DNA of 64,000 nucleotides, from positions 65,035 to 129,034 of IMG/VR virus record IMGVR_UViG_3300033153_006865, one strand, 5' to 3'. Origin of the DNA: a virus. Its lineage: Duplodnaviria > Heunggongvirae > Uroviricota > Caudoviricetes. The translations under genes were made by a program, and so were the position numbers. Position 1 is the first letter of the stretch. The number at the start of each line of letters is the position of its first letter. The notes below the pieces were generated by a model. That model was not told the origin of the DNA. It did no database searches and worked only from the letters and a program-made list of their open reading frames with translations. Below are positions 3,401 through 29,938 of this stretch, piece by piece.

Positions 3401-6148
3401 CAACTCATTTCTATACAACATATCTAAGTTGAATAGATCTAATGCTCTTCTAGACTCAACTGTAAGATCCTCTAAGACTACACCGTCTTCCATAACTGTT
3501 ACATCTCCTGTATAGTCTGGATCAATGGCGAATGGCATAAACTCTTTTTGAGAAATTGTTAAATCTGATGAATTAACTCTATTTAGGCCTTCTTTTAAAT
3601 CTCCTGCATTATTAAATGCACTCTTCTGTGACTGATGATTCCGATAAGCATTCCTTTGTACCACTTTATCTGCCTCAGTAAATTTACTTTGGTCAATAGT
3701 ACCATCTTCGTTTTGATACTTCTTTTTTATGGTGAACATGCTACTGTTCTTCTTATTAATATAGTCTTGAGTATTCTTATCTATATTAGCATCTTTAAAC
3801 CTCTTCTCTCTTTGATCGTAGTGGGCATCAGTATTTCTACGCTCAGTCCCTTCAGTATTTCTCCATTCCTTGATTTGATCTCTGTAAGAGTTGATTAACT
3901 CATCGGATTTAAGTACATTGGCTGGTGTGGTTCCTTCCCTTAACTTCTCAGCCTCCTCTACAGAAATTTCTAAAAGATCTGCTATAATTTGGTTCTCTTT
4001 ATCGGTGAGATCTTTTTCATACTTATCCCAGTTCAATGGTGATAGATAATAAAATGAATTCTTGTTTATGATATCCTTTTGGTGCTCTAATAGTCCTTTT
4101 TCGTCTATCTCCTGGATCTCTGTGTTCAACCTGTTCTTAAGAGCTTTTCTGACCTTTTGGTTGATCATGTTTACTTTTCTGGAAAGTAGCTGTATCAATG
4201 GGTTCTTACTTTGTGACGCTATTCCAAACATTTTTGCAAGCCACCCAATATCATTTATGTTTCCCTCAACATGTCCTCTGAACTCTTTCTGTTCGGCATC
4301 GGTCATATCAAACTCATCCACCACATCACTAACCATCTTTTCGATGTAAGCCTCGTTATCCTTTACCAACTCCGGTTTAATCTTGGCTATCTTTGTGTTG
4401 AGTTCGTCCGTTACAGATGATAACTGGTCAAACAATTTCTTATTTTTATCCTCTAAAGTTAATTTGCCAACACTATTTCTTAGGTTATTAACCATAGTTA
4501 TCAACACATCATTAAGTGAATGAGCAGTGTTTATGTCTTTTTGAGATATTACTTCTCCTGTAGAAGTAGCATGTTTAATAGCTGCCTCAATGGTTTCAGT
4601 TTGGTCAGCTGCAATCCCTACAACCACATTAAGGGAGGACATAATAGTATTCTCATTAATGGAATCATTTAGTCCCTCCAGTTCTGACAAACTAGGGGCT
4701 TGTTGCTTTAATACATTTTTGTGTAAATCTTCAATTACCCTCTTTGCAACACTAAGTTGACCTGCAATACTCTTATGCTTCGTATCCATAGCATTATAAA
4801 AGAATGCTTCAGATCCTTCAAGATTATTCTGGAAGTCGTCTTTTGTTTGAGTTATGATACTATCAGCGATACGATCATTTAACTTTTTTAATGTACGTGT
4901 GTGTGAAGGGGTTACTTTCCCAGTAACTAAATTTACAACACTTTGCCAAAGCTCTCTAAGTCTTTCGATTAAAGTAGTTTGTTGAGGAGAAGCATTTTCT
5001 GTACTGAACTTGTTGATAATTTGAGCCTTCAAAGTTTTACCAAGAATCTCTTTTCTTACCTGATCTTCTAGTCCAACACCTTCAAAAAATTGGGAATACT
5101 TCTCTCTATAAAACTCTGCAAATTCTGCATACTCTTTTGTTTGGTGAACAAGTGCTAATGCACCAGCAATAGAGTTTTGGTCGCTATACATCTCAATAGC
5201 GATGTGTGCAACTTCCTCTGCGAGATCTTCGGATACATCAGCTTTATCTTTTAAAGCTACAACCTTGTTTGCAATATCCGCCAATGCTTCAATGTCTGGA
5301 TCTTGTCCATGTTTATTCCTATAAGTCTCTCTATATGAATCTAAGGTTGTGGTGGTGAATCCGACACTTTTCAAAAATCCCATTAAGGAATTTGTAATAC
5401 CTTTTACGTCTGTGTCTGGCTTCTTTTGTACAGATTCTTGCCTTGTTAATTGTCTTACTGGATCAACCTTTACCTTGTACTCATAAAGTAAATCAGCTTT
5501 ATTTTTAATGTTTTTGTTCCCCTTAACATGTTGTGGAATATCTTCTATACGAATAGGTTTTTTACCCTCCGGAACTTCCATTTCTGTTAACTCATTGTTG
5601 AATTCAATAGTAAGTGTGCCGTCCCCATGTTGCTCCACTCTACCTTCTCCAATAGTGTTTCGTAGTTCATTCTCAGCCATTAAAGCAGTGACAATTTTTG
5701 TATCTTCGAATAATCCTTTCCCTATAAAACGAATAGACCCATCTGATTGGATAGATCTCTGTGCAGATAAATACCCCTGCTGAACAGCTGAGGATAAAAA
5801 TTTGTTTCTCATTGAAGAGTCTGTAGAAAAAATGCCTATAGGAAGGAATACTTCGCTTGATGGGATTTTGAATCCCATTTGTACATCCCCTGATATGCTA
5901 TCGATCAACAGTTCCTCTAGATTGTCATACTCCTTCCCTCCGGATTTGTAAAACAAGTCCGGCTCTTTACCCTCAAAGAGTTTATTTATCGATGGGGATA
6001 AAGCATTCATGTACAATTTCAAGGATGTGTTCCCATCTGCCATGAATAAATTGCTGTGGATTTTATCAAATAATGCCGACCTCTTTCCTTGAGGATTTTT
6101 TACTGATATGATTTCTCCCGAGGGAGAATAATTAATTTTACAAGCCAT
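455..6148 (-). CDS. Giant virion cargo/ejection protein (1897 aa) with degenerate zincin-like motif
   Basis: Last gene of the post-muzzle giant-gene cluster; largely helical and charged; LAEEVAHIAIE motif; hydrophobic segment near C-end (FGFDLLGMAILVGLTNALLA); single Cys at residue 3. Confidence 0.7.
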   Translation of the reverse strand: MACKINYSPSGEIISVKNPQGKRSALFDKIHSNLFMADGNTSLKLYMNALSPSINKLFEGKEPDLFYKSGGKEYDNLEELLIDSISGDVQMGFKIPSSEVFLPIGIFSTDSSMRNKFLSSAVQQGYLSAQRSIQSDGSIRFIGKGLFEDTKIVTALMAENELRNTIGEGRVEQHGDGTLTIEFNNELTEMEVPEGKKPIRIEDIPQHVKGNKNIKNKADLLYEYKVKVDPVRQLTRQESVQKKPDTDVKGITNSLMGFLKSVGFTTTTLDSYRETYRNKHGQDPDIEALADIANKVVALKDKADVSEDLAEEVAHIAIEMYSDQNSIAGALALVHQTKEYAEFAEFYREKYSQFFEGVGLEDQVRKEILGKTLKAQIINKFSTENASPQQTTLIERLRELWQSVVNLVTGKVTPSHTRTLKKLNDRIADSIITQTKDDFQNNLEGSEAFFYNAMDTKHKSIAGQLSVAKRVIEDLHKNVLKQQAPSLSELEGLNDSINENTIMSSLNVVVGIAADQTETIEAAIKHATSTGEVISQKDINTAHSLNDVLITMVNNLRNSVGKLTLEDKNKKLFDQLSSVTDELNTKIAKIKPELVKDNEAYIEKMVSDVVDEFDMTDAEQKEFRGHVEGNINDIGWLAKMFGIASQSKNPLIQLLSRKVNMINQKVRKALKNRLNTEIQEIDEKGLLEHQKDIINKNSFYYLSPLNWDKYEKDLTDKENQIIADLLEISVEEAEKLREGTTPANVLKSDELINSYRDQIKEWRNTEGTERRNTDAHYDQREKRFKDANIDKNTQDYINKKNSSMFTIKKKYQNEDGTIDQSKFTEADKVVQRNAYRNHQSQKSAFNNAGDLKEGLNRVNSSDLTISQKEFMPFAIDPDYTGDVTVMEDGVVLEDLTVESRRALDLFNLDMLYRNELKSESKTNTPLKQFSEKLEQLEKSGEISYEWALANASIGLTSEFYEGIGTTKGFTEVAEEYISILDTETAADKRRLLTEHQRLQRLRKDILKQHKKSNNSIETDAYHMTAHNKARIIELDTELAKVKKAINVPFDMQEESGFTGSEGALTQDFHDMLIESGLSEYEFALQHMTRDNSVKVQSFAIDIEDILSGVKTYLKPSFDNFLQESLAEGVVPEGASTEEAVEALKNEYAKRFVGSYFRRFQPIGYTEGINALKSGKVKLSEFIANKEQFLEEFPGLEYVEISPDYTWSEDINNGEFLNKNFKEGIPLTPKLSKYLNDEFFTRFGIKKEDYINLGKDDLSALTPTKNVDQYEFLQRMVNMREESLELQGDAQVINKYLRPQIRKEKAIEKIVSGSIDVATAKDSFTDFFQSKIDEKEYGEQIEGAAQSELSVGIIPKYFQQRVKNSEILTENVFTAAITDYEAALRYKERSNSEREFKALIDKIGNQNLINSGLSTLKNKIYKKGATSNYYSKAQEMVDHHLYGVRETRAIKVPMFGTEVDLTQTFKGITKAIQKSNLALNPLVDVTSLTTAIYNNVIDRVSGDFYTSSAARKAGKILPRMIVDYVSESGNIKKTSDLNHLLEFYGIVDIKDRTEQSASSRVIRGLSKSQFAMSKLANLPATPRILLSILHDHKFHGGKFRSYNNFKKVKQAKDNKISEASIKAEWNAITETLFDNIKIDKNLGVQIGSKFMEKFPENSVEEFDELSDRISAKVTHVVQNVDSQVSAADQTAAQRDALTNAFLMHRSWFILNLTRRFKGRHFNITTGQIESGHYIKALTSVHKLATGLIKGDKRVREEMEEHERRNLKRFGFDLLGMAILVGLTNALLAADDDDDSYLEDFAQLIALRTTSETQSAFFHGLLLATPADIYDQPLIQVKKTLDAFKAVKLLAIGEFNESYQTVKKITIFNRFNQLGDVQKQVDSYLFFNGLTLTGVAEFQ

Positions 6149-6154
6149 GTTGTT

Positions 6155-6565
6155 TTATTTTCCTCTGTAAACTGTTGCAAATCTGTCGAATAAACGATTC
6201 TTTGTTACTACTGTTAATATTTTTACACTGTCTCCAAGTAGGACCAGCTCTAAATCGACTGATGAGGTTGGTTTATTATCGACCCTCCTTATTTTGTAAA
6301 TAAGCCCTTCTATATCTGAGACTTTTACTAAGTCAAAAATACGGTACTTCCTCTCGTAGGTTCCAACTTGAATAACATCCCCTTTTATAAGTCTGTCCTT
6401 AAGCCCAATGAATGTTGTACTCCCCTTTTTGAAAATCGTTTTTGTGACCTTTGTAGTAGCAATTCTAACAGTGTGGAGCATAGTAAGATCGTTGACTGAC
6501 TTGTCAACCCCAGGCCACTGTGTTTCCTTAATTATTAATGTTTCTTTATTACTATGCACACTCAT
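6155..6565 (-). CDS. Hypothetical protein (136 aa), beta-rich, inside the cargo cluster
   Basis: Fills the gap between two giant genes; overlaps the 843-aa stop by 14 nt. Confidence 0.65.
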   Translation of the reverse strand: MSVHSNKETLIIKETQWPGVDKSVNDLTMLHTVRIATTKVTKTIFKKGSTTFIGLKDRLIKGDVIQVGTYERKYRIFDLVKVSDIEGLIYKIRRVDNKPTSSVDLELVLLGDSVKILTVVTKNRLFDRFATVYRGK

Positions 6566-9083
6566 TTATTGTTTCTTGTATTAAAGATTCCTCACTAGGA
6601 GTATACAAAGGTAACATTTCTATCGAGGATTCCAAAATAGTTGAATAGTTTTCAATACTAATCTTCTGGCTGCTGGACTTAAACTCCTCCCTCAAAGTCC
6701 TTGCTCCAGTATCTGAAATATCAACAACTTCTTTTAGACTTTCAGCTATTCTCTTGGCAGCAGGGGTTGCCTTGCTGTCATGGTGAAAATTCCTACCCTC
6801 CCTACTCGCTTTAGCATATGCCCTTAACATCAACTCAGTGCCTATACCATGCCCTTTGTGACCGTCAGAAACCCCAAACGAATCAGCAAAATAAGCTCCG
6901 TCAAAAGTCTCTTTAAACCTAAATGAGCCCACTCTTACTCCATTCCTTGATGCAATTATTGAAGTACCGTCCTCTATAAAAGTGTGGCTGTCGTCTTTTA
7001 ATTTTGAATACTTCTTCAAGCGTGGGTTTAGCGGGTCTGCTATTCTAGCCTCTTTCTTTTTAAACTGTTCAAAATCTGTTTTGCTTTCAAATCCTGAATA
7101 CTTATCAAAAACTTTTCTAGCATCTGTTTTATCAAAATCGAAATTCAAACTAGATGTATAATAAACAGGATCTTGAGCCGTAGTTATTTTTGAGTATAAT
7201 TCTGCTCCCTCTTTTGATAAAGACTTTCTGTAAAGCTGCCCATCTACTTTTATGAAGTCATTTACATTAGATGGTGTTACTACAAATCCTTTATCAACCT
7301 TATAGTGACTTTTATATTCACTTACCGATCTAGGATTATTTAATACGTAAAGGTCATTATTTACAACTGGGTTAGAGTTGTAGGTTAAATGATTCATTTC
7401 GGAAGATCTTTTTAAGGTTATGTAGTCCTTAAGTTCCTGTTCAAACTCTATACCTTCAATAGATTGTAGACTCTCGGAAAGTGTTATATCATTATCCAAG
7501 ATATCGAATTTAGATAAGACCCCTCTAAAGATGGGGGAGTCTTCAGCTTTTTCCTTGAGAATGTAGCTGTAGAAATCCGAGATAAAATTCATCTTAAGAT
7601 ACTCCTCATTTGTCTTTATATTTATCAATCCGCCAATGTCTACAGACCTTGATATTGGCTTGTGATTAAATGCAACCTGGTACGCAGATAGTAACTCTAC
7701 ATTTCTAAAATCTGCTCCAGTGTCTCTTGTCATTAAGTAACTGGAAATATCTTCTAATACTGAAATTTTGTTATCAGTTCCATCTTTTAGGGGTATGTCT
7801 AAGTTATCATCCATTACCTCTTGATATAAAAACTCTTTTATATCATTTACATCAGCTCCTTGGTCAACTTTATGATAAAGATCCTCTCCTATTTTTATTA
7901 ATCCAAATTCATCAAACAGTGTGTTTTCAGATTGATTTGATTTAAGGGTTATAATATTATATCCTAGGTAGGCATTATCTAGTCTGGCAGTTGCTCCTTT
8001 ATTTACTGTTGGGGCTAATGCCTCCATTCTTGTAGAAAAGTCTGATATGGTTCTATCATTTATTCCCTGTAACATCTCAATGGCACTAGCTACAACTTCT
8101 ATAACCTCATCTCTTTGAATGGAGCTGTTTGCAATGCCTACAACATCTACTCCAATCTTTGCAAAATCTAGTTCAATCTCGTTTAGGATTTTCTTGATTA
8201 AGTCTTGGTTGGCTTCCCATACCTGTGGGTCAAGAGTATTTAAATAGTCATACTGAGCCTCTACTAATACCGTATTTTCATCTCTTTTTATAGTATTTTT
8301 TACAGTAGTATATCTAGTATTATTCTCTTGGCTCAATTGTCCATCTCTTATTGAAAGGACGGGGATTGATTTAATATCCTTTAGTTTATTAAGTAGGGCT
8401 TTGGCAAATTCTGCATCTTCCTCAAATGCTTCGGCTAATCCCTCATAAGGCATCTCCTGGAGTTTGTTTAATAAATCTACTTCATCAGTAAAATTCTTTA
8501 CTGTATTTTTAATAATTTGATCGATTTCTTGTTGGGAAACTCTCTCTGATGAGCCAAAAACTGTCCTCCTTGTTGGATCAGTATAGTATGTGCCCTGTCT
8601 TCCAGTAGTGACTTCAAAATCTTCTATAGATAACTGCCCCTGAACTTTACTCATCATACTGCCTACCTTTAATAAATCAATGTCAAGAAGGTCTTCTCTG
8701 GTATATAAACCTGAAGATATTGCTCTTGTAGTATTAATCTCTAAAGTTCCGTTTGGTTTGAAGATGTCAATTAGGGTTTTATGAAGTTTTGATAAGGAGC
8801 CAATGTTACTTCGTTCCATAAAATCCTTCACTTCCAATCTTTCTGATGGGTATAAATTATTATCTTCTGCCTGCGCTGCATCAAAATACTTTAGTAGATC
8901 TTGCATTGATGCTTGTTCTCCGCCTAAATTCTCATCAAAGGCTGTAGCATACGCATTCAATGCCATAGTCTGATCATTCAATAAATCTAATAGATTTGCA
9001 TACAACTCTGAAGGTTGTCCATTCTCTTTTGTTACATGTGCAGTTCCATCTGCTGAGTACGATATTTTACAGGCTAATCCCAT
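6552..9083 (-). CDS. Virion cargo protein (843 aa) with C-terminal GNAT acetyltransferase domain
   Basis: C-terminal ...IIASRNGVRVGSFRF...FADSFGVSDGHKGHGIGTELMLRAY...ATPAAKRIAESL matches GNAT motifs A/B; N-terminus paralogous to the 1897-aa protein. Confidence 0.7.
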   Translation of the reverse strand: MGLACKISYSADGTAHVTKENGQPSELYANLLDLLNDQTMALNAYATAFDENLGGEQASMQDLLKYFDAAQAEDNNLYPSERLEVKDFMERSNIGSLSKLHKTLIDIFKPNGTLEINTTRAISSGLYTREDLLDIDLLKVGSMMSKVQGQLSIEDFEVTTGRQGTYYTDPTRRTVFGSSERVSQQEIDQIIKNTVKNFTDEVDLLNKLQEMPYEGLAEAFEEDAEFAKALLNKLKDIKSIPVLSIRDGQLSQENNTRYTTVKNTIKRDENTVLVEAQYDYLNTLDPQVWEANQDLIKKILNEIELDFAKIGVDVVGIANSSIQRDEVIEVVASAIEMLQGINDRTISDFSTRMEALAPTVNKGATARLDNAYLGYNIITLKSNQSENTLFDEFGLIKIGEDLYHKVDQGADVNDIKEFLYQEVMDDNLDIPLKDGTDNKISVLEDISSYLMTRDTGADFRNVELLSAYQVAFNHKPISRSVDIGGLINIKTNEEYLKMNFISDFYSYILKEKAEDSPIFRGVLSKFDILDNDITLSESLQSIEGIEFEQELKDYITLKRSSEMNHLTYNSNPVVNNDLYVLNNPRSVSEYKSHYKVDKGFVVTPSNVNDFIKVDGQLYRKSLSKEGAELYSKITTAQDPVYYTSSLNFDFDKTDARKVFDKYSGFESKTDFEQFKKKEARIADPLNPRLKKYSKLKDDSHTFIEDGTSIIASRNGVRVGSFRFKETFDGAYFADSFGVSDGHKGHGIGTELMLRAYAKASREGRNFHHDSKATPAAKRIAESLKEVVDISDTGARTLREEFKSSSQKISIENYSTILESSIEMLPLYTPSEESLIQETINECA

Positions 9084-9086
9084 ATA

Positions 9087-12000
9087 TTAACAAGGTTTTT
9101 TTATAAAGTTGATTAAGTCAGATACACCTTTTCCAGCTGTTTTCTTCTTGATATTATCCTCTACTTCTTCTGATTGTACAACTTCCGAAATTGTGGTGTT
9201 CACCTCTGTGAAATCCATTTGTACCTTTGGAGAGTGTAGCGGATCTTTAAGGTTTAAGTCTGTGGTAACGCCAGACTTAATAATAGTTTCTATTGATACA
9301 CTGGGGTCAATCCAAGAATCAAGGCTATTAAAGTAATCAATTGCCCCTAATTGTGCAAGCTTTTCACCAAAAAACTTATCGTTTAGATTTGTTTTCCCAT
9401 ACGCTGCAAAAGAGTTTCCTGATTCCTTAATATCTATACCTCTGAGTGCCATAAACTTATTCAACTCAGCTGCCTTATCCGCAGGAGTGAAGTTCGGGTT
9501 ATTGTAAACGGCACTAAATTTTGAATTGTCAGGAGCTTCCTGAGTAACAACAGTCACTGGATATGCAATTCTAGTTGCACCTTTTTGAATTACAATAAAT
9601 GGATGCTTAGTATTAGTACTGTCCTTCTTTTTATTAGTTATAAAAGTTGTGTCAATACCTTGCTCCTTAGATTGAGTAAATATTTTTCCTTGAGAAATAT
9701 ATCCAATATCTTTTATACTTGAAATATCTTCGGTTGCAATTTGCTTACTCTCAACAGAGACAGTAGCTCCCTCTTTTACGAAATTTAAATTTGGGTGTCC
9801 AACTAAAACTTTCTTTACTTTTACCCCGGTAATATCCAGCTGCTGGTCAATACCTACATCAACTAATTCATCCAAAAGTTGATCATTATTTGCAATCTCA
9901 TTTCTAATTGAGTCAAACTTTGCAGCATCAATACTATTTATGGCAGTTGGTCTGATTCCCTTAAGAACAGCCAAAATATTACCTTGTTTATCCTTTACTC
10001 GAATTACGAGACTTCTTCTCATTTCCTCACGTAACTTCTTGAGTTTCCTAGGTTTGTTTCTGGCATTTTTATATGCTTCAATAAATCCTGCCTCACCTTT
10101 TCGCTCCCTATTCCAGCCATCTTCTGGAGAGACTTCAAGAACCAAATCATCTCCTTTGACTGCATCATATATGGCATCTGGGCTCATTTGTGTCCCAAAA
10201 TCTTCGCTAAAGTCTGTCGTCAATGCCTTGGTTGATAACTCATCTGTCTTTAGTACCACACTATAATTGGAGGGTAGGGATTCATTTGTTGCCAAAATAG
10301 AAATGGGTGAATTCTTATTGATTGTTTCAACATCCTCATCCTTGATGATAGTGTTGCCTTGATCATTGATCGTAATAGGTACTGCAAACCCAATCTGATC
10401 TAAAAGACCTTCAGGTGTTATCCCTGATATCTCTACTGCATCCTCTGTCTTAATAGCAGTTACCCCATGATAAGTTTGTCCATAAGAGTATCTTGCTGTT
10501 CTTGGGGAGTCTGTAAAGCTAATCTGGGATAAAGTCTCTGATGTGGTGGTTGCGCCTACATTTTCTACCTCAGTAATTGGTGTCTCCTCTAATACAATTT
10601 TTTGTCTTACTAAATCACTCATTCTAAGTCCCTCGATTACAGTCCCTGTAAGGTCGGTCCACTGGTCAAGGGTTACCTCTAAATCTTCAAGTTCAAAAAC
10701 TTCCTCCTCGGTAAGATCTGTTATTTCCCTCTTTTTTATTAGGGAGTTCATCCTTTTGTAATCAGCACTTTTAAGTATGGGAATAATTTCACCTTTAGAC
10801 GATGTTATCTCTGACGTTAGCTTCTTTATGGTGAGTTCCCGCTCAATAAATTTTGGATAATTCTCTTGTATTTGTAAATCTTCTGCAGATTCTATCTGCT
10901 CGCCTTTAGTTATCTTATCAACCAACTGTCTGGCTTTCTTGTGGTCCCCTGCTTCCGCCTCTTGCTCAACCTCCTGGGCTTTCGCCTGTTCCAGTTTATC
11001 TTCAAGCCCTTTGACCAGTTCTGGATTTTTATTTATATCTCTTACAGAATCAATTTCCTTACCAACTTTGGTTAGTATATCATTAATTACATCAAGGCTG
11101 GTCAAATCCTTCCCTTCTGGATTTATACGTTGAATCAAAGCCACCGTATCACCCTCTAAAGGATTTTCTCCAGTGGACTTTTGAGAAGTAATAATAGGAG
11201 ACTCATCTTGGATATTTTCTAATTCTTGAACAAGTTTACCATATCCAAGTTGGATTCTTATAATAGATTCCATTCTAAATTTTTCTCTATCAGATAAATC
11301 TTGTGATTCAAACTGAGATTCAATCTGCTCCATTACAGTACCTTCCCCTCTAAACCCTGTTAGTCTTAAGGATTCATCAATTTTTGCCTCATTCTCTTTA
11401 ATGATTTTACGGAAGTCTTCTGACATAACGTACTCCTTTCCAAGTATCATTTTTCTTAGTCCCTTCCCCTCTTTTCCAGAGAAAAAATCTGTTGCGAGCA
11501 TCCTTTGAAACCCTGTGGTCATCTCGTTGTGAGAGTCGGCATTTAATTTATATTGCTCTAAAAGATTTGTGAGTATTTGTGCATCTGCCTGTCTCCCGTT
11601 TCTTTCTAATGAATTAGCAAAATCCTGTATTCTATCAATTCTGTCCAAGGATTCAATTATACCACCAACTGATTCAATAGAGTCCTCACGATCTAACGTC
11701 AAGTTCTGTCCTCTTAAATCATTATCAAACTCTTCAGTTATATCTGCAATCTCCTGATTTAATTCAGCTACTTTTTGATTTGTTCTGACCAGTTTCTCAC
11801 TAGCCCTTTCGTACCTTTTCTGTCTAACCTCTGGTGAAAATTTCCTACCTCCAGTATTTATCCCAGCGACCTCTTGTGCATTCCTTACTGCTTGCTTCTC
11901 AAGGTCACGTAGTGCTCTTTTCTTTCTTCTCAGTCCTTGAGCCTTAGTCTTCTTTTCCTTAGATAGGTTATTATAGTGTTCCAGAAGCCCAAATGATCCC

Positions 12001-13954: not shown

Positions 13955-16789
13955 TTATTGGGATTTAGCTTTTTCTTTAAGACCTTGGGTTTTAATACTA
14001 TTAAGATATGATGCAAACGCATTTTCTATAAATATTCTCGGTTCAATAAACATCCTCTCCCTTTCCGCCTCTGTAAACCTGGGCTCTCTTGTGTTATACG
14101 AGAATACCTGTTTATCTCCTAGTTTTATTTGTACAGAATATGTTCCAGAAGTGTTTGGGACCAAGTTGAAGTCGTATTGTCCATCTTCGAAGGCAGCAAG
14201 TGTGCTTTTGTAAGTAGTTGCGTATCCAGGTGTCAACTCCTCGTTTATTGTAGTGTATAAATCTGTTACAACCTCGTCGGTAAATATAGGATTTGGATAA
14301 CTTGCTTTATCATAGTTAAGGGGGTTCTCACTGTCAAAGGTGTGATTCCCCAAAGGGATAGTTTTTGCACTCTCTCCTTGGCTTGCATCATACGGAAATG
14401 TACTGGTGTCAAATCCTCCAACTACTCCAGCCCTCAAAAGTTCTGACTCTGCTGCTGATGTAGTTACGACTCTATATATTGCTGCTCCGGCATTAATTTG
14501 CTTTGTGGTATTTTTAAGTCTGTAGGAAATATTCAACTTTCCAGAATATGTCCCGTCTGAATTATATCTCTTACTGATATTTATAGCATCTTTAAAATCG
14601 GCCTCTAATATTCCAGCCTTTGCTTTTAAGCTTTCGTACCCCTTAGTATCTGGTGTGAACGTGTATTTATAGGAAGATGCTAACTTCTCATCTGTTACTG
14701 CATATACATCAGAGGATATTTTATTTATGTGCTGGAAACCATCTTTCATAACTAAATCTAAACCTAGTTGTTTTTCATCAGATATTGCAGCTTGTATAGC
14801 AGGGTCTATACTACCAAGGTATAAGAATCTCTGAGCTCTGGCAGTTGTTAAATCACTTGTGGTGAATTCATTAAGCCAGAAATCGTCTACAGAATTTACT
14901 GTAGAAAAAGAGTTAGGGAAATGTTCTCCCTCCGAAGCAATAGTTTGGGCATCAATTTTACCTCTGCTACCTGCTCCTAGCTTAGACTTTAACTTATCTA
15001 CATATTGTCGTGTTAACTCTCTATCTGATTCAGATATTGAATCATCAGCAAGAAGGTGTAGTCCTATGTACATCTCCATTGTAAGTTCATCTGCCTCTGA
15101 ATTTAAATCCCTTGTTAGAAGTTCTTTGTAACTGTTTCTTCCACTATTTTGTAACTCTACATATGTCAGCTGCCCATCAATCTCTTCTATCTTAAAATTG
15201 AAATTTGGAACCTCCTCATCAAAGTCTATTCCAGGGTTTACCCCTCTTGCACTTATACTAAGAGAAGTATACATTGTTTCTATCATAGAATGCATCCCAT
15301 CGAATGCCCTCTCTTTAACTGCACTAGTCTTTACAATATTCTCCCGATAATCTTCAAGTGTTTTAAGGTTGTCTAAAACTGAGATTTTCTTTTCTTTCCC
15401 GTCCTTGCCTATTAAAGTTATGTTGGTTCTCCCATTTAAGTTATTCAACTGGTCTAAGAATTCTGGATCCATTAGAGCATCTGGATCAAGGCCTGCGTCT
15501 GTCATTAAAGTCGACACATTTTTTATCATTGCCTTTTCTCTACCTAGGTTTCTCTCAACAAAATTAGATAATTCCCCAACAGTTGGTACTGCTATCTGAG
15601 GCCCCCTTTTAGGATCTAATAGTGCCTTCCCTTCCTCCTCTTTTTGGAATTTAGCTACATCTAATTGAAACTTTCTCTCACTTAAGCTTTCGGACACAAG
15701 ACTCTTTCTTCGACTCTCATTGTAATTCTTTAGTTTCAAATCATAATTGGCATTTGCTACCTGAGTTGCATCCACCTTTGTTTCGATAACTCTAGGGGCA
15801 TATGAATAGGTATCTAAAATATTATTTTTGAATCTTCGATTGTGAAGAGTTGAATATACAGCCTCTCTTCCACTTGTATTATAAAGATTTTCAAAAGAGT
15901 TACTTCTTATGCCATCCCTTTGGTCCCTCCACCCCTCAATAGCTGTATCATACTTTGCCTTTTCTGCATCACTGCTAACCTCGCCCCTAGCTATTTTTAG
16001 TGCGTCGATCATTTCATTGGCTTGGCTAAGTCGAGGCTGATTATAACCATCATACATGTCCTTCAATATCTCATCTGGTAGTTGATCATATATCCCCCAG
16101 GCATCGATGTTCATCTGCCTTTGATCTCCGCTATCAAATAGGAACTCTAAAGCTTGCTCCATCTGCCCTCTGTCAACAGCCTCATTTGTTTCTATAGATC
16201 TGAAATATCCTTGTTGTGGTCCAGTAGATATCCATTTTGCCTTCAGTGACTTTTGAAGATCAGGAAGATTGTCTAATATCTTCTTTCCAAGGTCTCTGTA
16301 CTCAATGACTCCCCCGCCACCCTTATACTTTGACCCGACTTTTTCATCTTTTAACCACGCATTAGATGCTCTATTAGCGTAGGAATGATTTGTTTGGTTG
16401 TATAATGCAGGTTTATCTGTCTTAAGTTTTTCCCATGCAGATTGTTCACTTCTTAATCTCGCTGTTGAGACAATAGCGGTTTGTACATTCTCGTCGACTA
16501 CTTCTGATAACTTTGACACTAACCCATCAGTGAAGTTGCTGTCAGATAAATCTAACGCAGAGTACTTATCAATAATACCTTTTGCAGTTTGGAGCCTATT
16601 CTCAGTGTATTCCTTGTCCTGATCCTTCGCTATATCTATGAATGTGAGACTATCATAAACATTTTGAAGCTTGGCTCTGTTCGCATTAAGTGCCCCCTGC
16701 TTGGCCTGCAAGGCTGTACTGATTAACTGTAAGTTGGGTCTGTATAACTCCTGAGAGTAATTATGTAAAATGGAATATGCTGATGCCAT
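13955..16789 (-). CDS. Virion cargo protein (944 aa)
   Basis: Position in cargo cluster; N-terminal Y-x-P...ALQAKQ helical start; no Cys. Confidence 0.65.
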   Translation of the reverse strand: MASAYSILHNYSQELYRPNLQLISTALQAKQGALNANRAKLQNVYDSLTFIDIAKDQDKEYTENRLQTAKGIIDKYSALDLSDSNFTDGLVSKLSEVVDENVQTAIVSTARLRSEQSAWEKLKTDKPALYNQTNHSYANRASNAWLKDEKVGSKYKGGGGVIEYRDLGKKILDNLPDLQKSLKAKWISTGPQQGYFRSIETNEAVDRGQMEQALEFLFDSGDQRQMNIDAWGIYDQLPDEILKDMYDGYNQPRLSQANEMIDALKIARGEVSSDAEKAKYDTAIEGWRDQRDGIRSNSFENLYNTSGREAVYSTLHNRRFKNNILDTYSYAPRVIETKVDATQVANANYDLKLKNYNESRRKSLVSESLSERKFQLDVAKFQKEEEGKALLDPKRGPQIAVPTVGELSNFVERNLGREKAMIKNVSTLMTDAGLDPDALMDPEFLDQLNNLNGRTNITLIGKDGKEKKISVLDNLKTLEDYRENIVKTSAVKERAFDGMHSMIETMYTSLSISARGVNPGIDFDEEVPNFNFKIEEIDGQLTYVELQNSGRNSYKELLTRDLNSEADELTMEMYIGLHLLADDSISESDRELTRQYVDKLKSKLGAGSRGKIDAQTIASEGEHFPNSFSTVNSVDDFWLNEFTTSDLTTARAQRFLYLGSIDPAIQAAISDEKQLGLDLVMKDGFQHINKISSDVYAVTDEKLASSYKYTFTPDTKGYESLKAKAGILEADFKDAINISKRYNSDGTYSGKLNISYRLKNTTKQINAGAAIYRVVTTSAAESELLRAGVVGGFDTSTFPYDASQGESAKTIPLGNHTFDSENPLNYDKASYPNPIFTDEVVTDLYTTINEELTPGYATTYKSTLAAFEDGQYDFNLVPNTSGTYSVQIKLGDKQVFSYNTREPRFTEAERERMFIEPRIFIENAFASYLNSIKTQGLKEKAKSQ

Positions 16790-16802
16790 AACTATTTGAT
16801 TT

Positions 16803-16874
16803 TCAGTACGTTAGGGAAAAAACATTCAGTTGCTCCTCCAAATTTGTTATTATGTCTGGATTAAATTGTCTCAT
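16803..16874 (-). CDS. Possible small ORF/uORF (23 aa, MRQFNPDIITNLEEQLNVFSLTY)
   Basis: ATG 16874 to TGA 16803, lying between a consensus promoter and the 944-aa gene. Confidence 0.3.
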   Translation of the reverse strand: MRQFNPDIITNLEEQLNVFSLTY

Positions 16875-16889
16875 TATCAATGATGGATA

Positions 16890-16920
16890 CAAACATAGTG
16901 AAATTACTGATGCCTGCAAA
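16890..16920 (-). promoter_or_regulatory. Bacteroidota housekeeping-sigma-type promoter
   Basis: Perfect TTTG-N19-TATGTTTG in the intergenic gap upstream of the 944-aa gene. Confidence 0.75.
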
Positions 16921-16940
16921 ACCAATTGGTAAATATTTGA

Positions 16941-19205
16941 TTAAAACTGTAATCCTGTCCCAACTAAGTTGCTTCTGTCTTTAAGTCTGAACTCTCCCGT
17001 TGGGTCATAATCTACAGTGGCTCCTGAATAACCTAAATCATAATCTGGTGTTAGTGTGTTTAATAAGTTGAGGTCCTGTTGGTTTCTAAAATCTGCTGTA
17101 TTAATTCTTCTCAGCTCATCAAAATATCTCAAATATTCCTCTCGAGTGTTGGCTTTTGCTGTCATCTGCCTCTGCTCGAAGCTGAGTGCGTTACCTAATT
17201 CAGCCTGTTCCTCTCTACCTGATTGTCCTATATTAAATAAACTGGCTGAAGCTTGATTCTGAGCGTTTACCACGTTAGCCTTGTGGATTGAATCATTAAT
17301 ACTCTTTTGGTAATTTGCATGGAGTCCTGCTAATGCTGCTGCCCTCTGTGGGGGTGGTAAATGGTCCATCTGTGCTGATGCAAATCTTAAAGCTTCATCT
17401 GCTTGCTGCTTCTGACTCTCAATTCCGACCCTTACTGGATCTATTCTTTGTAACTTCAGGTCTCCTCTAAGGTGTGCTGCAAGTGGTGATGGAGGTAGTG
17501 GTGTCTGGTCTGGTGCTGCAAATCTTGTTGGTATTTTTTTTCTTGGTAGTTCTGTTATGCTATCAATTATGGGCTCTCCCTCTGGGCCTACAATAACCTC
17601 TTCCTCTTCTAAGGGTTTAATCAACTCTACTGGTGCTGCACCCTCGAAAGAGTTCAGAGTAAAATCTGACCCCTCTCCTTGTAGCTTACTGATCTCATTT
17701 AACCTCCCTATAGACGATTCACCTAATGTCACATCTCCATCATCAACAGCCTTTTTTAACTGGTTTACTGTAAAGATGTTTTTTGCCTCTAAATCTTTTA
17801 ATTCATCTGGGGTTACAATATCAATACCCATGTTAAACCTTCCCGAGGTAAACTGACCTAGTTTACTATCAAGACCTCTGGCGATGCTTTCATCAAAAGT
17901 TTCATTTTTTACAAAGTTTTGTGCCACTTCAATCTGTTCTGGAGAAAAATTGTTCGGGTTATCCATAATAACCTGGGCTGTTGCCTTCATCCGGTCATTA
18001 GCTTTATTTTGAAAATTTTCAACTTGTTTTTGCGTTTTAGAAAAGTCAATATCCTCATTGTACTGAATATTTCCATCCTCGTCAAAAGTTACTCCAAATA
18101 CATCCTCAGCAGCAACTATGTCTGGAAAATTTCTATATAAAGAGGAAAGTACCTGAGGTATATTATCTTTTGTAATCTTTCCAAATCCTTCGGCTGTTCT
18201 TGATTGTTTCTCTCTTTTGAAATCCTCTCTATTTGAGAATTTGTGTTTACCTGTAGTTGTTTTGAACTTTACACCGTCTTTATCCTTACCTTTTGCAGCA
18301 TTCAACTGCTCTTGTATCTTTGTTTCCTCATCTGGGGTAATAGCTCCAGCATTTTTTAATATTTTAAAATCCTCTTCTGTTTTTACCCCTTCCCCTTTAA
18401 TAATCTCTACAAGGAGTAAATTTGCATCTTTTTGAGTTATCTCCCCTGCCGTAAGAGCCTTTTGTATATCCGACTTAGTCTTTGGCTCCCCATGTGTGCC
18501 TCCATTAGGATACTCCTTAGGCATAGCTTTTTTATACTCTACCATATAAAGTCCTTCCTTTTCTGTCAAATTGAACTCTTTTATTAAATCATTGAACTTT
18601 GATTCAGTTATGCCACCTTTTGCAAATATTTGCTCTTTTCTTGCTTTAAGGTCCTCAGCTCCATTCTGACTTGGTTTGTCATTCTCTTGGATAGTGAATA
18701 GTGTATCAAAGAATAGTCCCTTAATTTTTTCCTTTCCTTCTTTAGATTTTTCAACCCCTGAAATTTTTTCTGACAAGTACTGCTTATTAATGTTTAAAGT
18801 ACCTTTGTCATCAGTGCCTTCTAATTGCGTCTTCAACTCTTCGAACAATTCAGACTGCTCATTGTATAATCTCTTCAACCCTATCTTATCCACATACTTA
18901 TCTAATACTTTGGCATATGTATCCTTAGGGGAGACTTTGATATCAAACTCTTTACTAATACTTTTAGCCTGGGATGCGCTTATGGTAAGTTGGTCAGATA
19001 GTATTTTTGTCCCATCTGGTATATTGACATCTACTCCACCTTTCTTATGTGAATTTCCAATAGCCTTTACAGTCTCCTTATCAGGAAATTGTACATACTC
19101 CTTATTCTCTACTTCTGCATTTGCTTCCATAGGAGCCTTATCAGAGAGTCCTTGTAAAAATTCTCCAGTGAGTGTTTTTGATATTGGTGGGCGATTATCT
19201 GGCAT
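16941..19205 (-). CDS. crAss-like cargo protein (754 aa)
   Basis: N-terminal ANAEVENKEY...GNSHKKGGV motif, which I recognise from crAss-like cargo proteins; Gln/Ala-rich helical C-terminus; no Cys. Confidence 0.7.
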   Translation of the reverse strand: MPDNRPPISKTLTGEFLQGLSDKAPMEANAEVENKEYVQFPDKETVKAIGNSHKKGGVDVNIPDGTKILSDQLTISASQAKSISKEFDIKVSPKDTYAKVLDKYVDKIGLKRLYNEQSELFEELKTQLEGTDDKGTLNINKQYLSEKISGVEKSKEGKEKIKGLFFDTLFTIQENDKPSQNGAEDLKARKEQIFAKGGITESKFNDLIKEFNLTEKEGLYMVEYKKAMPKEYPNGGTHGEPKTKSDIQKALTAGEITQKDANLLLVEIIKGEGVKTEEDFKILKNAGAITPDEETKIQEQLNAAKGKDKDGVKFKTTTGKHKFSNREDFKREKQSRTAEGFGKITKDNIPQVLSSLYRNFPDIVAAEDVFGVTFDEDGNIQYNEDIDFSKTQKQVENFQNKANDRMKATAQVIMDNPNNFSPEQIEVAQNFVKNETFDESIARGLDSKLGQFTSGRFNMGIDIVTPDELKDLEAKNIFTVNQLKKAVDDGDVTLGESSIGRLNEISKLQGEGSDFTLNSFEGAAPVELIKPLEEEEVIVGPEGEPIIDSITELPRKKIPTRFAAPDQTPLPPSPLAAHLRGDLKLQRIDPVRVGIESQKQQADEALRFASAQMDHLPPPQRAAALAGLHANYQKSINDSIHKANVVNAQNQASASLFNIGQSGREEQAELGNALSFEQRQMTAKANTREEYLRYFDELRRINTADFRNQQDLNLLNTLTPDYDLGYSGATVDYDPTGEFRLKDRSNLVGTGLQF

Positions 19206-19209
19206 ATTT

Positions 19210-20244
19210 TTATCCTTTAAATAATTCCGAATACGTATTAACCTGTGGATTGACTTCCTTGTAGGTTCCTGTACCTGTGTCGAAATACTGATTATTATCT
19301 ACTTTGAGGTTTGTTATAGAATCTCCATTGGTAACTCCTCCGAATTCTAAGTAGGCCTTAAGCGCATCTTCACTGCTCTCCGTATAGTAGTTTCCCCCAG
19401 TAGCAAATAGTGGGAGCCCTTTTCTTGTCTGGATCTTATCCCTTCTTGGAGCAAATGTATTTCTTAATCTATCTGTTGCAGAAAAGTATCTCTCGTAGGA
19501 AGTTGTTCCGTCTGGATTGATGTACGGTTGTCCCGTATCTATATGGTAAGACCTATTGGCGAACCTTTCGTTGTCCCTCCTTTTATTATAAATAAGATTG
19601 TCTTTTTCATCTTCTCCATAGGTTCCCCCGTATGGGTATTTTTTCATCACCCCTCCATATTCAAAATACCCTCCAGTGAAGTTAGCATCAGAAGATTGTG
19701 GAGCTTCTATATACCTATTGTTTGTTCTCTTCTCATTATAGAAATCTTGTACTTCATTACTTCTCTTTTGTGTTGCAAAGTTAGACAACCCTGTTCTAGC
19801 TGCCCCTAGAGCAAAAGATCCAATAGACCCTGCTAATCCAAGTCCCCTCCCTTTTGCACCTTTTTCCATCCCTGCAAACCTTCCTATATTAGCTGCTTTT
19901 GTTTCAAGGTTATACCCTCCTGGATTTAAAAGGGTTGCCTGATCAAGATAGCTGTCTTTATCCTCAGGCTGGGCTGTTTCACCCTCTCCTGTGGGAGTTA
20001 TGAATTGCCTTTGGGAGTCAGTCGGAAAAGATGAATATTGATCTTTAGGTAGCCCCTCCTTGGTTGGGAAAGACGTATACTGGTCTTGAGGTGTACCCCC
20101 TCCGTTAATATCGTCTGATGTATCCCCTATATCTGCAGTTTTTAATGATGCTCCTGCTAGTGACGTTGTTGAAGTAACAAGTTGGGTGGCCTCCTCTCTA
20201 GAAATCCCTAATAATTCTTGAAGACGTAAAATTTTTTCTTCCAT
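19210..20244 (-). CDS. Cargo-type protein (344 aa) with repeated (F/Y/L)xxGG motifs
   Basis: FEYGG, YPYGG, FATGG, LEFGG; Gly-rich segment GRGLGLAGSIGSFALGAA. Confidence 0.65.
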   Translation of the reverse strand: MEEKILRLQELLGISREEATQLVTSTTSLAGASLKTADIGDTSDDINGGGTPQDQYTSFPTKEGLPKDQYSSFPTDSQRQFITPTGEGETAQPEDKDSYLDQATLLNPGGYNLETKAANIGRFAGMEKGAKGRGLGLAGSIGSFALGAARTGLSNFATQKRSNEVQDFYNEKRTNNRYIEAPQSSDANFTGGYFEYGGVMKKYPYGGTYGEDEKDNLIYNKRRDNERFANRSYHIDTGQPYINPDGTTSYERYFSATDRLRNTFAPRRDKIQTRKGLPLFATGGNYYTESSEDALKAYLEFGGVTNGDSITNLKVDNNQYFDTGTGTYKEVNPQVNTYSELFKG

Positions 20245-20248
20245 GGTG

Positions 20249-20286
20249 TAAATTTAATGATTAAGTACGAGACTTAAAAATAGATT
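20249..20286 (-). promoter_or_regulatory. Promoter, probably leaderless
   Basis: AATCTATTTT-N20-TAAATTTA-CACC-ATG. Confidence 0.55.
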
Positions 20287-20290
20287 ATTT

Positions 20291-21178
20291 TTATTGATAT
20301 TTAAAGATACTCGGCAATTTCGGCAATGCCGTTTGAATGTCAATTCCCTCCAGTGGATTTATCTGCTTAGTCTGTCTTCTGCCTAGGTTTTGCTTTCTTT
20401 TTTTATAGAGAGCTTCATCCCTTTCGTGAGCTGCTCCCAGTGTCTTTAAAAAATCCTGCTGACGTTTGCTCTTCTCGTCCTGAACTTTTTTTAGCTGCTT
20501 TCTTGCATCTGATTCTTTGTCCTTTTTCTTGTTTATTTCAACCTTTTCCTCCTCCTTTTTTACCTGCTCTATAAACAACATAGAGGCTTGGTCTGCGGGT
20601 ACAACTACTTCCCCACCTAATCCAGTGGGGCCTACAGGTATAGTCATTAATCCAGTATTCGCAACGTTTTTAATCCTATTTCTATTAATCGTTTGTCCCT
20701 TCTGTGGTTTACTATAGTCGTATGTGGGATTCTGATTAATAAAAGCGTGGACCGGCTGCGTGTTATCAAAATTATTAAATCTTGTTTGTACTTTCTTATA
20801 AAGGGCTGAATCTTTTCCAATATGAAAATGTGGTCCAGTCCCTTTGGACTTCTTAAGAGCTTCTGGATCTGTTTCATCAAGGATACCCAGTTTGTACTTA
20901 TTCATCAATGTAAGGCCTTCTTGAGTGTTGTACAAATATTCATATACATCAGCATTCTCTTTTCCAATATCAATAGCATCACCTTTATGATGGTGTGAAG
21001 ACTCTCCACTTGGTGAGAAATCCCTTTTACCAGAAGTTATGCGGAGGCTGGGAAATAGTACCAGAAGTCCATTATAAAAACCAGTTAAATCATCAGACAA
21101 TCCATCTACAGCGTGATTATGGCCGGAATGGGAGTCTTTCTCCCTCTGTGGATCGGTATTTGTTTTTTCTTTAGCCAT
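20291..21178 (-). CDS. Peptidase M15-like (DD-peptidase/LAS fold) peptidoglycan hydrolase with coiled-coil tail
   Basis: ITSGKR...SSHHHKGDAIDI (S-x-H-x-x-G-x-A-x-D) and GPHFHI (H-x-H) zinc-ligand motifs. Confidence 0.8.
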   Translation of the reverse strand: MAKEKTNTDPQREKDSHSGHNHAVDGLSDDLTGFYNGLLVLFPSLRITSGKRDFSPSGESSHHHKGDAIDIGKENADVYEYLYNTQEGLTLMNKYKLGILDETDPEALKKSKGTGPHFHIGKDSALYKKVQTRFNNFDNTQPVHAFINQNPTYDYSKPQKGQTINRNRIKNVANTGLMTIPVGPTGLGGEVVVPADQASMLFIEQVKKEEEKVEINKKKDKESDARKQLKKVQDEKSKRQQDFLKTLGAAHERDEALYKKRKQNLGRRQTKQINPLEGIDIQTALPKLPSIFKYQ

Positions 21179-29505: not shown

Positions 29506-29919
29506 TTATTCTATTATCAAATCAGCAATAGTCAACCCATAAAATCCTCCACTACCAATCATAATTTTTGCGACCTTTAACAGTTCTTCTATCTCCTTTC
29601 CTATAGTAGTTGTTTCAGTAAAGGTTAACTCGGCAGTAATCACATCAAGTTCAGCTTGTGTGACTGGGTTTTTATAATTTGGGTCACCAATTACTTTTGT
29701 ATGGGTTGTTATTTGTTCATGACTCTCAAGAAATTCAGGGTCTTCTGCAGTTCCAGATCCAACTATTGCTTCTGTTATCGTAGAGCTAATAAATTTTATA
29801 ACATATCTTTGTTGATCGATTAGAACAGTCTTCTCAAAACTGTGGAATAGTATATTACTTGTTAAGCCAGGCTCACTAGCATTAATAATTTTTGGTATTG
29901 ACGTTCTTATTTGTTTCAT
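29506..29919 (-). CDS. Hypothetical protein (137 aa) after tail fibre gene, possibly a fibre chaperone
   Basis: ORF track; position only. Confidence 0.55.
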   Translation of the reverse strand: MKQIRTSIPKIINASEPGLTSNILFHSFEKTVLIDQQRYVIKFISSTITEAIVGSGTAEDPEFLESHEQITTHTKVIGDPNYKNPVTQAELDVITAELTFTETTTIGKEIEELLKVAKIMIGSGGFYGLTIADLIIE

Positions 29920-29938
29920 GTTATTTTATTTTTTATTT

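Follow-up and report, generated by a model that had tools for sequence, protein, structure and literature searches.

The 64,000-nucleotide (nt) window analyzed here comprises positions 65,035 to 129,034 of IMGVR_UViG_3300033153_006865, a 130-kb IMG/VR virus record (Caudoviricetes) with terminal repeats. At 455–21178, eight consecutive genes on the minus strand encode proteins of 295, 344, 754, 944, 1620, 843, 136 and 1897 amino acids (aa), 6,833 aa in sum, from which cysteine has almost vanished. The few cysteines that remain lie in three of these proteins, hereafter A (1620 aa), B (843 aa) and D (1897 aa), at the termini that face one another across the A–B–D series (Table 1). The conservation of these terminal residues, and the possibility that they tether A, B and D head to tail, are the subject of this report.

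Table 1 Features of the cysteine-poor cluster in the window
Feature	Coordinates	Strand	Details
Protein A, 1620 aa	9087..13949	-	Cysteine-free but for the last residue, Cys1620 (codon 9090-9092); tail ...INFIKKPC
Protein B, 843 aa, middle link	6552..9083	-	MGLAC..., Cys5 (codon 9069-9071); ...ETINECA, Cys842 (codon 6558-6560); no other cysteine
GNAT acetyltransferase domain of B, residues 699-763	6795..6989	-	PF00583 match at E 1e-5, which passes the curated cut-off
N-terminal module of B, ~57 aa	8913..9083	-	Homologous to the D N-terminal module
Small open reading frame between B and D, 136 aa	6155..6565	-	No cysteine; family at the same position in most marine relatives
Protein D, 1897 aa	455..6148	-	Cysteine-free but for Cys3 (codon 6140-6142); MACKINYS...
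N-terminal module of D	5978..6148	-	AlphaFold2 model; Cys3 invariant in 51 aligned sequences
Four cysteine-free virion-type proteins (944, 754, 344, 295 aa) upstream of A	13955..21178	-	No terminal cysteine

By script count, the eight proteins hold four cysteines, with none in the 136-, 944-, 754-, 344- and 295-aa proteins. A sequence-only reading of the window had located the four residues by manual scan; the open reading frame (ORF) list and the script count reproduce their residue numbers and coordinates in A, B and D exactly, and the computational count found no internal cysteine that the scan could have overlooked. The other 36 window ORFs contain 164 cysteines in 12,837 residues (1.28%), and about 87 would therefore be expected in 6,833 aa; the Poisson probability of four or fewer is 3e-32, and the chance that all four fall within five residues of a terminus is ~2e-8. 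Adjacent tail-type genes encode 1.3–3% cysteine, in keeping with their earlier description as cysteine-rich. The same reading held that each C-terminal cysteine is followed in gene order by a protein with an N-terminal cysteine. This is true of A and B; between B and D, the 136-aa ORF intervenes.

The genome belongs to the Lightbulbvirus/epsilon-crAss-like neighborhood, and the cluster is syntenic with its counterpart in two Lightbulbvirus phages of Cellulophaga, phi17:2 and phi4:1, at ~21–24% identity. The phi17:2 homologues of A and D are gp039 and gp036; in phi4:1, gp038 (A), gp037 (B) and gp035 (D) are annotated as virion proteins from tandem mass spectrometry. PHROG matches for D and the upstream proteins carry the label ‘virion structural protein’. 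Protein A matches crAss001 gp47 (BLASTP E 4e-19) and phi14:2 g067 (E 1.6e-9), and D matches crAss001 gp49 (E 1.8e-10) and phi14:2 g065 (E 2.9e-9), while BLAST of B against phi14:2 g066 and crAss001 gp50 gave no match. The window resembles the Crassvirales trio (phi14:2 g067-g066-g065; crAss001 gp47-gp50-gp49) in its giant, presumably virion-packaged proteins, in the homology of A and D and in the pattern of terminal cysteines, but differs in its middle protein, where 843 aa with a GNAT domain stand in place of the two-barrel RNA polymerase and show no detectable similarity to it; the DFDxD motif of that polymerase is absent from B, a motif search returning non-homologous chance matches only. 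In this middle link, the GNAT domain represents the portion that varies, its cargo or effector. Presumably A, B and D are virion-packaged proteins of the class of the crAss-like ‘RNA-polymerase-associated’ trio and are ejected into the host. Megablast of the region against a phage collection, phmmer of A, B and D against the PDB, and Pfam searches with the remaining proteins of the cluster yielded no matches. Within D, residues ~291–371 form an invariant block (D291, A298, E311, E312, H315, Y347, Y351, E367, G370) with the motif EExxHxxxE; the block may be the counterpart of the zincin-like peptidase domain that orthologues of phi14:2 gp65 are reported to contain (10.1101/2020.03.07.982082).

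The terminal cysteines are conserved in each of the three families. Among 120 A homologues, taken as clusters at 90% identity, 118 carry a cysteine within the last five residues and in 117 it is the sole cysteine, with 1 internal cysteine in 216,577 residues of the family. Of the two exceptions, one is a gene broken by a frameshift; its downstream fragment ends ...KKKDC, with MGLKC next in line. A search for loci related to B with the 843-aa protein alone found nothing, and an alignment of D N-termini was needed to find them. For D, 335 relatives were found among representatives at ≤50% identity; of the 130 that are full-length, 128 have a cysteine at residue 3–6, the sole cysteine in 101 of these proteins of ~1,900–3,600 residues. 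Here too one of two exceptions has a ready explanation, a miscalled start, since a GTG 17 codons upstream restores MANSC. B-type proteins, assembled from 19 IMG/VR and metagenome loci together with the window and csAssE-Sib, possess both terminal cysteines in 21/21 cases, the C-terminal one 0–2 residues from the end, even as the proteins range from 517 to 2,571 aa, carry unrelated cargo and have an internal cysteine frequency of 0.03%. Family-wide, internal cysteine lies at 0.0005–0.03%. The outer ends of the series are cysteine-free, with no cysteine in the first ten residues of A (0/120) or in the last ten of D (0/133). B and D begin with clearly homologous modules of ~55 residues, which follow the pattern M-x(1-4)-C-[KR]-I-x-...-G-x-x-S-x-L-[FY].... 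In csAssE-Sib (L007, OR575929; 19190-25592), the D homologue is split into two coding sequences where IMG/VR relatives have one 2,140-aa ORF, likely an annotation problem in the public record.

Both TGT and TGC codons are used for the terminal cysteines, and the genes overlap at some junctions and lie >200 nt apart at others, so that it is the residue, not an RNA signal, on which selection acts. A cysteine codon serving as an RNA-level junction signal was accordingly rejected, given the two codons, the variable spacing and a D gene that in some relatives lies ~10 kb away or upstream. Also rejected was stop-codon read-through between A and B as a general cause, as the corresponding phi17:2 genes overlap in different frames. 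In the window, the A and B genes share a frame and are set apart by a stop codon and one further codon (9081-9092, minus strand); in the phi17:2 overlap, the single stretch TCATGTGCTAG encodes both junction cysteines in two frames. At L091:10001-26474, the D gene lies upstream of the cysteine-free cluster, among KilA-N and Bro-N genes, with its terminal cysteine kept; the A-B-D gene order is therefore not universal.

The same rule extends to Crassvirales and to a cyanophage. In phi14:2, cysteine is the last residue of g067 (1,797 aa), occurs at Cys3 and Cys2179 of the virion RNA polymerase g066 (2,180 aa; PDB 6vr4), and in g065 (1,421 aa) is present at Cys3 only. The crAss001 proteins follow suit: gp47 has Cys2339 of 2,341 residues, gp50 has Cys5, one internal cysteine and Cys2404 of 2,412, and gp49 has Cys5 only. 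Both terminal cysteines are kept in 120/120 close gp50 relatives, all at ≥68% identity to crAss001, so that this count speaks to depth and not to breadth. DAC15 obeys the rule as well. In crAss002, A is accompanied by a B-D fusion whose likely true start reads MSC; the annotated start of this gene, gp33 (L101, 7243), seems to lie 32 codons too far upstream, likely an annotation problem. In cr4_1, an A-B fusion ends ...NCKGK and is followed by a D protein starting MIC. The cr4_1 locus (L102, 8524-27412) also contains in-frame TAG codons, 38 in gp26 and 18 in gp27, which fits TAG recoding in a Suoliviridae genome. The cyanophage Lbo-JY46 encodes a 1,552-aa A that ends in cysteine and a 2,748-aa fusion that starts MSNC; upstream of A in this Leptolyngbya phage (L103, 626-2650) is a 674-aa protein with a single Cys5 (MKKKC...) and no evident C-terminal cysteine partner. 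Taken together, hundreds of relatives, crAss-like gut phages included, keep the terminal-cysteine rule, and the conservation that the sequence-only reading had called for holds down to ~21% identity.

Gene splits and fusions are tracked by the number of cysteines. Most loci, L089 among them, have C-terminal and N-terminal cysteines in the ratio 2:2; L088, with A and a natural B-D fusion, has 1:1; and L003, with an extra 792-aa link that carries Cys3 and Cys791, has about 3:3. At the joint of the fusion P0066, the last ~35 residues of the link and the first ~23 residues of D are missing, which together are both cysteine-bearing peptides, and the ~21 D representatives that are extended or fused all lack a cysteine at the internal joint. 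Cysteines at junction-facing ends only, matched numbers and fusions that dispense with the cysteine peptides together support the head-to-tail pairing that had been proposed. They also bear on an alternative in which the termini play separate roles: the N-terminal module would serve as a signal for packaging or for docking on the portal, capsid or scaffold, and the C-terminal cysteine would attach to other components of the virion, link homodimers or cyclize B, with no A-B-D chain. A module shared by B and D could indeed be a targeting signal, the neighboring tail and portal-vertex proteins are cysteine-rich, crAss001 structural proteins use disulfides, and the matched cysteine numbers, taken alone, fit a B closed on itself plus an A–D link. 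Separate roles leave unexplained, however, why cysteines are restricted to junction-facing ends, why an extra link comes with an N-terminal as well as a C-terminal cysteine, and why fusions delete both cysteine peptides of the joint while keeping the outermost ones; we regard this alternative as unlikely. At L003:12705-14720, the chain region encodes an extra 671-aa protein whose only cysteines form a CxxC motif (residues 40, 43), and which is preceded by a B with a second cysteine 63 residues from its end. The middle links of L003 and L089 show a faint ART-PolyVal match.

An AlphaFold2 (AF2) model of D residues 1–120 (predicted local distance difference test (pLDDT) score of 80) has a beta-hairpin at residues 4–17 followed by three helices. 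Invariant positions in the N-terminal module are limited to M1, C3 and S24, and the C-terminal tails share no conserved histidine or cysteine beyond the single terminal cysteine. The cysteines have charged neighbors, K/N/D before that of A and K/R after the N-terminal one. A fold search with the model against the PDB and AlphaFold database (AFDB) clusters returned no significant match, which leaves an origin of this coupler in a Hint, Ntn-hydrolase or thioredoxin-like domain unsupported; Pfam searches of D N-termini gave scattered chance matches only.

These features are relevant to a second alternative, that the terminal cysteines are not inter-protein links but sites of post-ejection processing or modification, through capture by a host periplasmic thiol oxidoreductase, lipidation or catalytic self-cleavage. 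The cysteines lie on exposed ends where the charged neighbors would make their thiols reactive, and a zincin-like protease domain is reported in D homologues (10.1101/2020.03.07.982082). Set against this are the lack of a signal peptide or lipobox, a cysteine position that varies (residue 3–6 at the N-terminus; 0–4 residues from the C-terminus, ~8 in crAss001 gp50), and a module without a fold match to a hydrolase or Hint domain; the tracking of fusions and splits and the junction-facing restriction are likewise left unexplained. We consider processing sites a very improbable account.

Pairing of a C-terminal peptide with an N-terminal domain, which the sequence-only reading had suggested modeling, was examined by complex prediction for D residues 1–120 with the last 70 residues of B. 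The prediction scored 0.35, the best of three controls scoring 0.00, with a contact agreement of ≥58% and a partner pLDDT of ≥48 across runs. The mark that it passed is reached by 58/80 solved complexes and by 2/110 mismatched pairs, and passes that score no higher than 0.60 turn out wrong more often than right, except where the pairing was likely beforehand. The modeled docking of the B tail on the D module is thus a weak pass.

A model for the A, B and D proteins emerges in which proteins of the ejected type have been purged of cysteine, with a single cysteine retained wherever an end faces the neighboring protein. The A C-terminal tail would meet the B N-terminal module, and the B C-terminal tail the homologous module of D; with each tail docked on the N-terminal module of the next protein, the two thiols could form an inter-chain disulfide, in the assembled or the released virion. 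The product would be a single A-B-D thread of ~4,360 residues, equivalent to the giant polyproteins of some relatives, that we infer to be ejected in fixed order and, once in the reducing host cytoplasm, to be opened at its links so as to free the parts, among them the GNAT enzyme of B. Lacking a terminal cysteine, the 944-, 754-, 344- and 295-aa proteins fall outside the proposed covalent chain. What is observed is a cysteine pattern that is conserved, confined to junction-facing ends and in step with splits and fusions. The best reading of these observations is that A, B and D are tethered head to tail through their terminal cysteines, most likely by inter-chain disulfides, and on balance we hold it to be probable. 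A logic of this kind is familiar from di-chain toxins of the diphtheria and botulinum type, in which one disulfide holds two polypeptides together in translocation and cytosolic reduction separates them; these toxins differ in having no sequence or structural relation to the phage proteins and in deriving their chains from a nicked precursor, not from separate genes.

Several observations weigh against the disulfide-tethered chain. The A homologue P0246 is without a terminal cysteine, for which we have no explanation; the 900-aa B of L003 has a second cysteine 63 residues from its end; and the A-B fusion of cr4_1 (gp26) keeps Cys2180 about where A would end, so that cysteine loss on fusion is not absolute. 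As noted above, matched numbers alone also accommodate a self-closed B, and the complex prediction is a weak pass. The disulfide is argued from sequence covariation and this weak prediction, and the ejection of A, B and D from their protein class. Virion assembly takes place in the reducing cytoplasm, the gut relatives live in anoxic habitats, and no Erv/ALR-type sulfhydryl oxidase, thioredoxin or glutaredoxin was detected in the genome; oxidation would then have to occur spontaneously or under the action of the host or the environment.

This redox setting also favors a variant in which the partners are the same and their thiols are joined by a shared metal ion, as a bis-thiolate or a four-cysteine site in an oligomer, or by another covalent bridge. 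All of the pairing evidence fits such a bridge equally well. However, each junction offers only two cysteines, the module provides no other invariant metal ligand (only M1, C3 and S24), the tails share no histidine or cysteine beyond the single cysteine, and disulfides do form in crAss001 virions. A metal or other bridge is in our estimation decidedly unlikely, and the disulfide remains the link that we favor.

A broader version of the tethered-chain reading can be formulated, in which crAss-like cargo, including the Crassvirales virion RNA polymerase, is packaged and injected as a redox-cleavable, disulfide-stitched ‘pseudo-polyprotein’, and the tail and the ~55-aa coupler constitute a portable connector that would let phages split, fuse and swap injected effectors yet keep a single thread. 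We judge the chances of this generalization to be evenly balanced. That the coupler catalyzes true ligation or thiol exchange is a more remote version of the same idea.

Parts of this picture have precedents. In some crAss-like phages the three proteins occur joined as one polyprotein (10.1101/2020.03.07.982082). That paper makes no mention of the terminal-cysteine pattern. The virions of crAss001 contain structural inter-subunit disulfides, and the structural atlas of this phage lists gp47, gp49 and gp50 among the cargo left unresolved and does not comment on their cysteines (PMC10172136). Cysteine suppression has been described in the ejection proteins of Schitoviridae (N4 gp50, the virion RNA polymerase; DEV gp71-gp73) and attributed to passage through the oxidizing periplasm (PMC11445570). 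These are giant virion proteins that cross the envelope on ejection and, like the proteins of the window with 4 cysteines in 6,833 aa, show near-total cysteine loss; unlike the window proteins, they are reported without any conserved cysteine, whereas here one cysteine is kept per junction-facing end. PHROG and Pfam matches gave no link to N4 gp50-gp52, and no direct comparison was made. A 2026 paper on N4 does not mention the terminal-cysteine pattern.

Polyvalent proteins (Iyer, Burroughs, Anand, de Souza and Aravind, 2017), known from phages and from conjugative elements, are very large multidomain proteins delivered with DNA, with effector domains that include ART-PolyVal, acetyltransferases and a zincin-like peptidase (PMC5512222). 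Signs of a likeness are indirect, namely the GNAT domain of B, the faint ART-PolyVal match in the links of relatives and the conserved EExxHxxxE motif of D; the difference is that a polyvalent protein is one chain, presumably cut by a peptidase of its own, whereas the present proteins would be separate chains joined through cysteines. The paper mentions neither cysteine nor disulfide (PMC5512222). Atlas look-alikes of D are LPD38/LPD39/ART-PolyVal clusters, which is a lead only, and Pfam gave no above-threshold LPD or MPTase match in the window’s own proteins. The sequence-only reading knew of no description of such a mechanism; a literature search, with limited reach into subscription journals, found no published description of terminal cysteine pairs. 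Cysteine suppression in ejected proteins is already known, and the kept junction-facing terminal cysteine was found in no paper.

Between B and D, the 136-aa ORF represents a conserved family of ~125-aa proteins, some of which carry a cysteine-rich C-terminal extension ending in cysteine (L003 ...LLGDC, L013 ...RVGDC, L008 ...CNCKK); phi17:2 has an unrelated gene in its place. As a thiol partner in the window this protein was rejected, the window copy being without cysteine, and it probably takes no part in the cysteine chemistry there. Two more cysteine-free ORFs (137 and 991 aa), with no PHROG or Pfam match, lie at 29506-32914 on the minus strand, past the cysteine-rich tail-type genes.

Podophages package and inject protein in megadalton quantities, the crassvirus RNA polymerase included, and this cargo is invisible in cryo-electron microscopy maps. 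The tethered chain can be tested in the cultured phages phi4:1, phi17:2, phi14:2, crAss001 and DAC15. A conserved covalent link would explain a fixed stoichiometry and an ordered exit through a narrow channel, and would account for a module that is encoded by anything from one to four genes. A built-in release switch, through cytoplasmic reduction, would come with it, and in laboratory strains the pair of tail and coupler could serve as a natural connector with which to load foreign cargo into phage particles.

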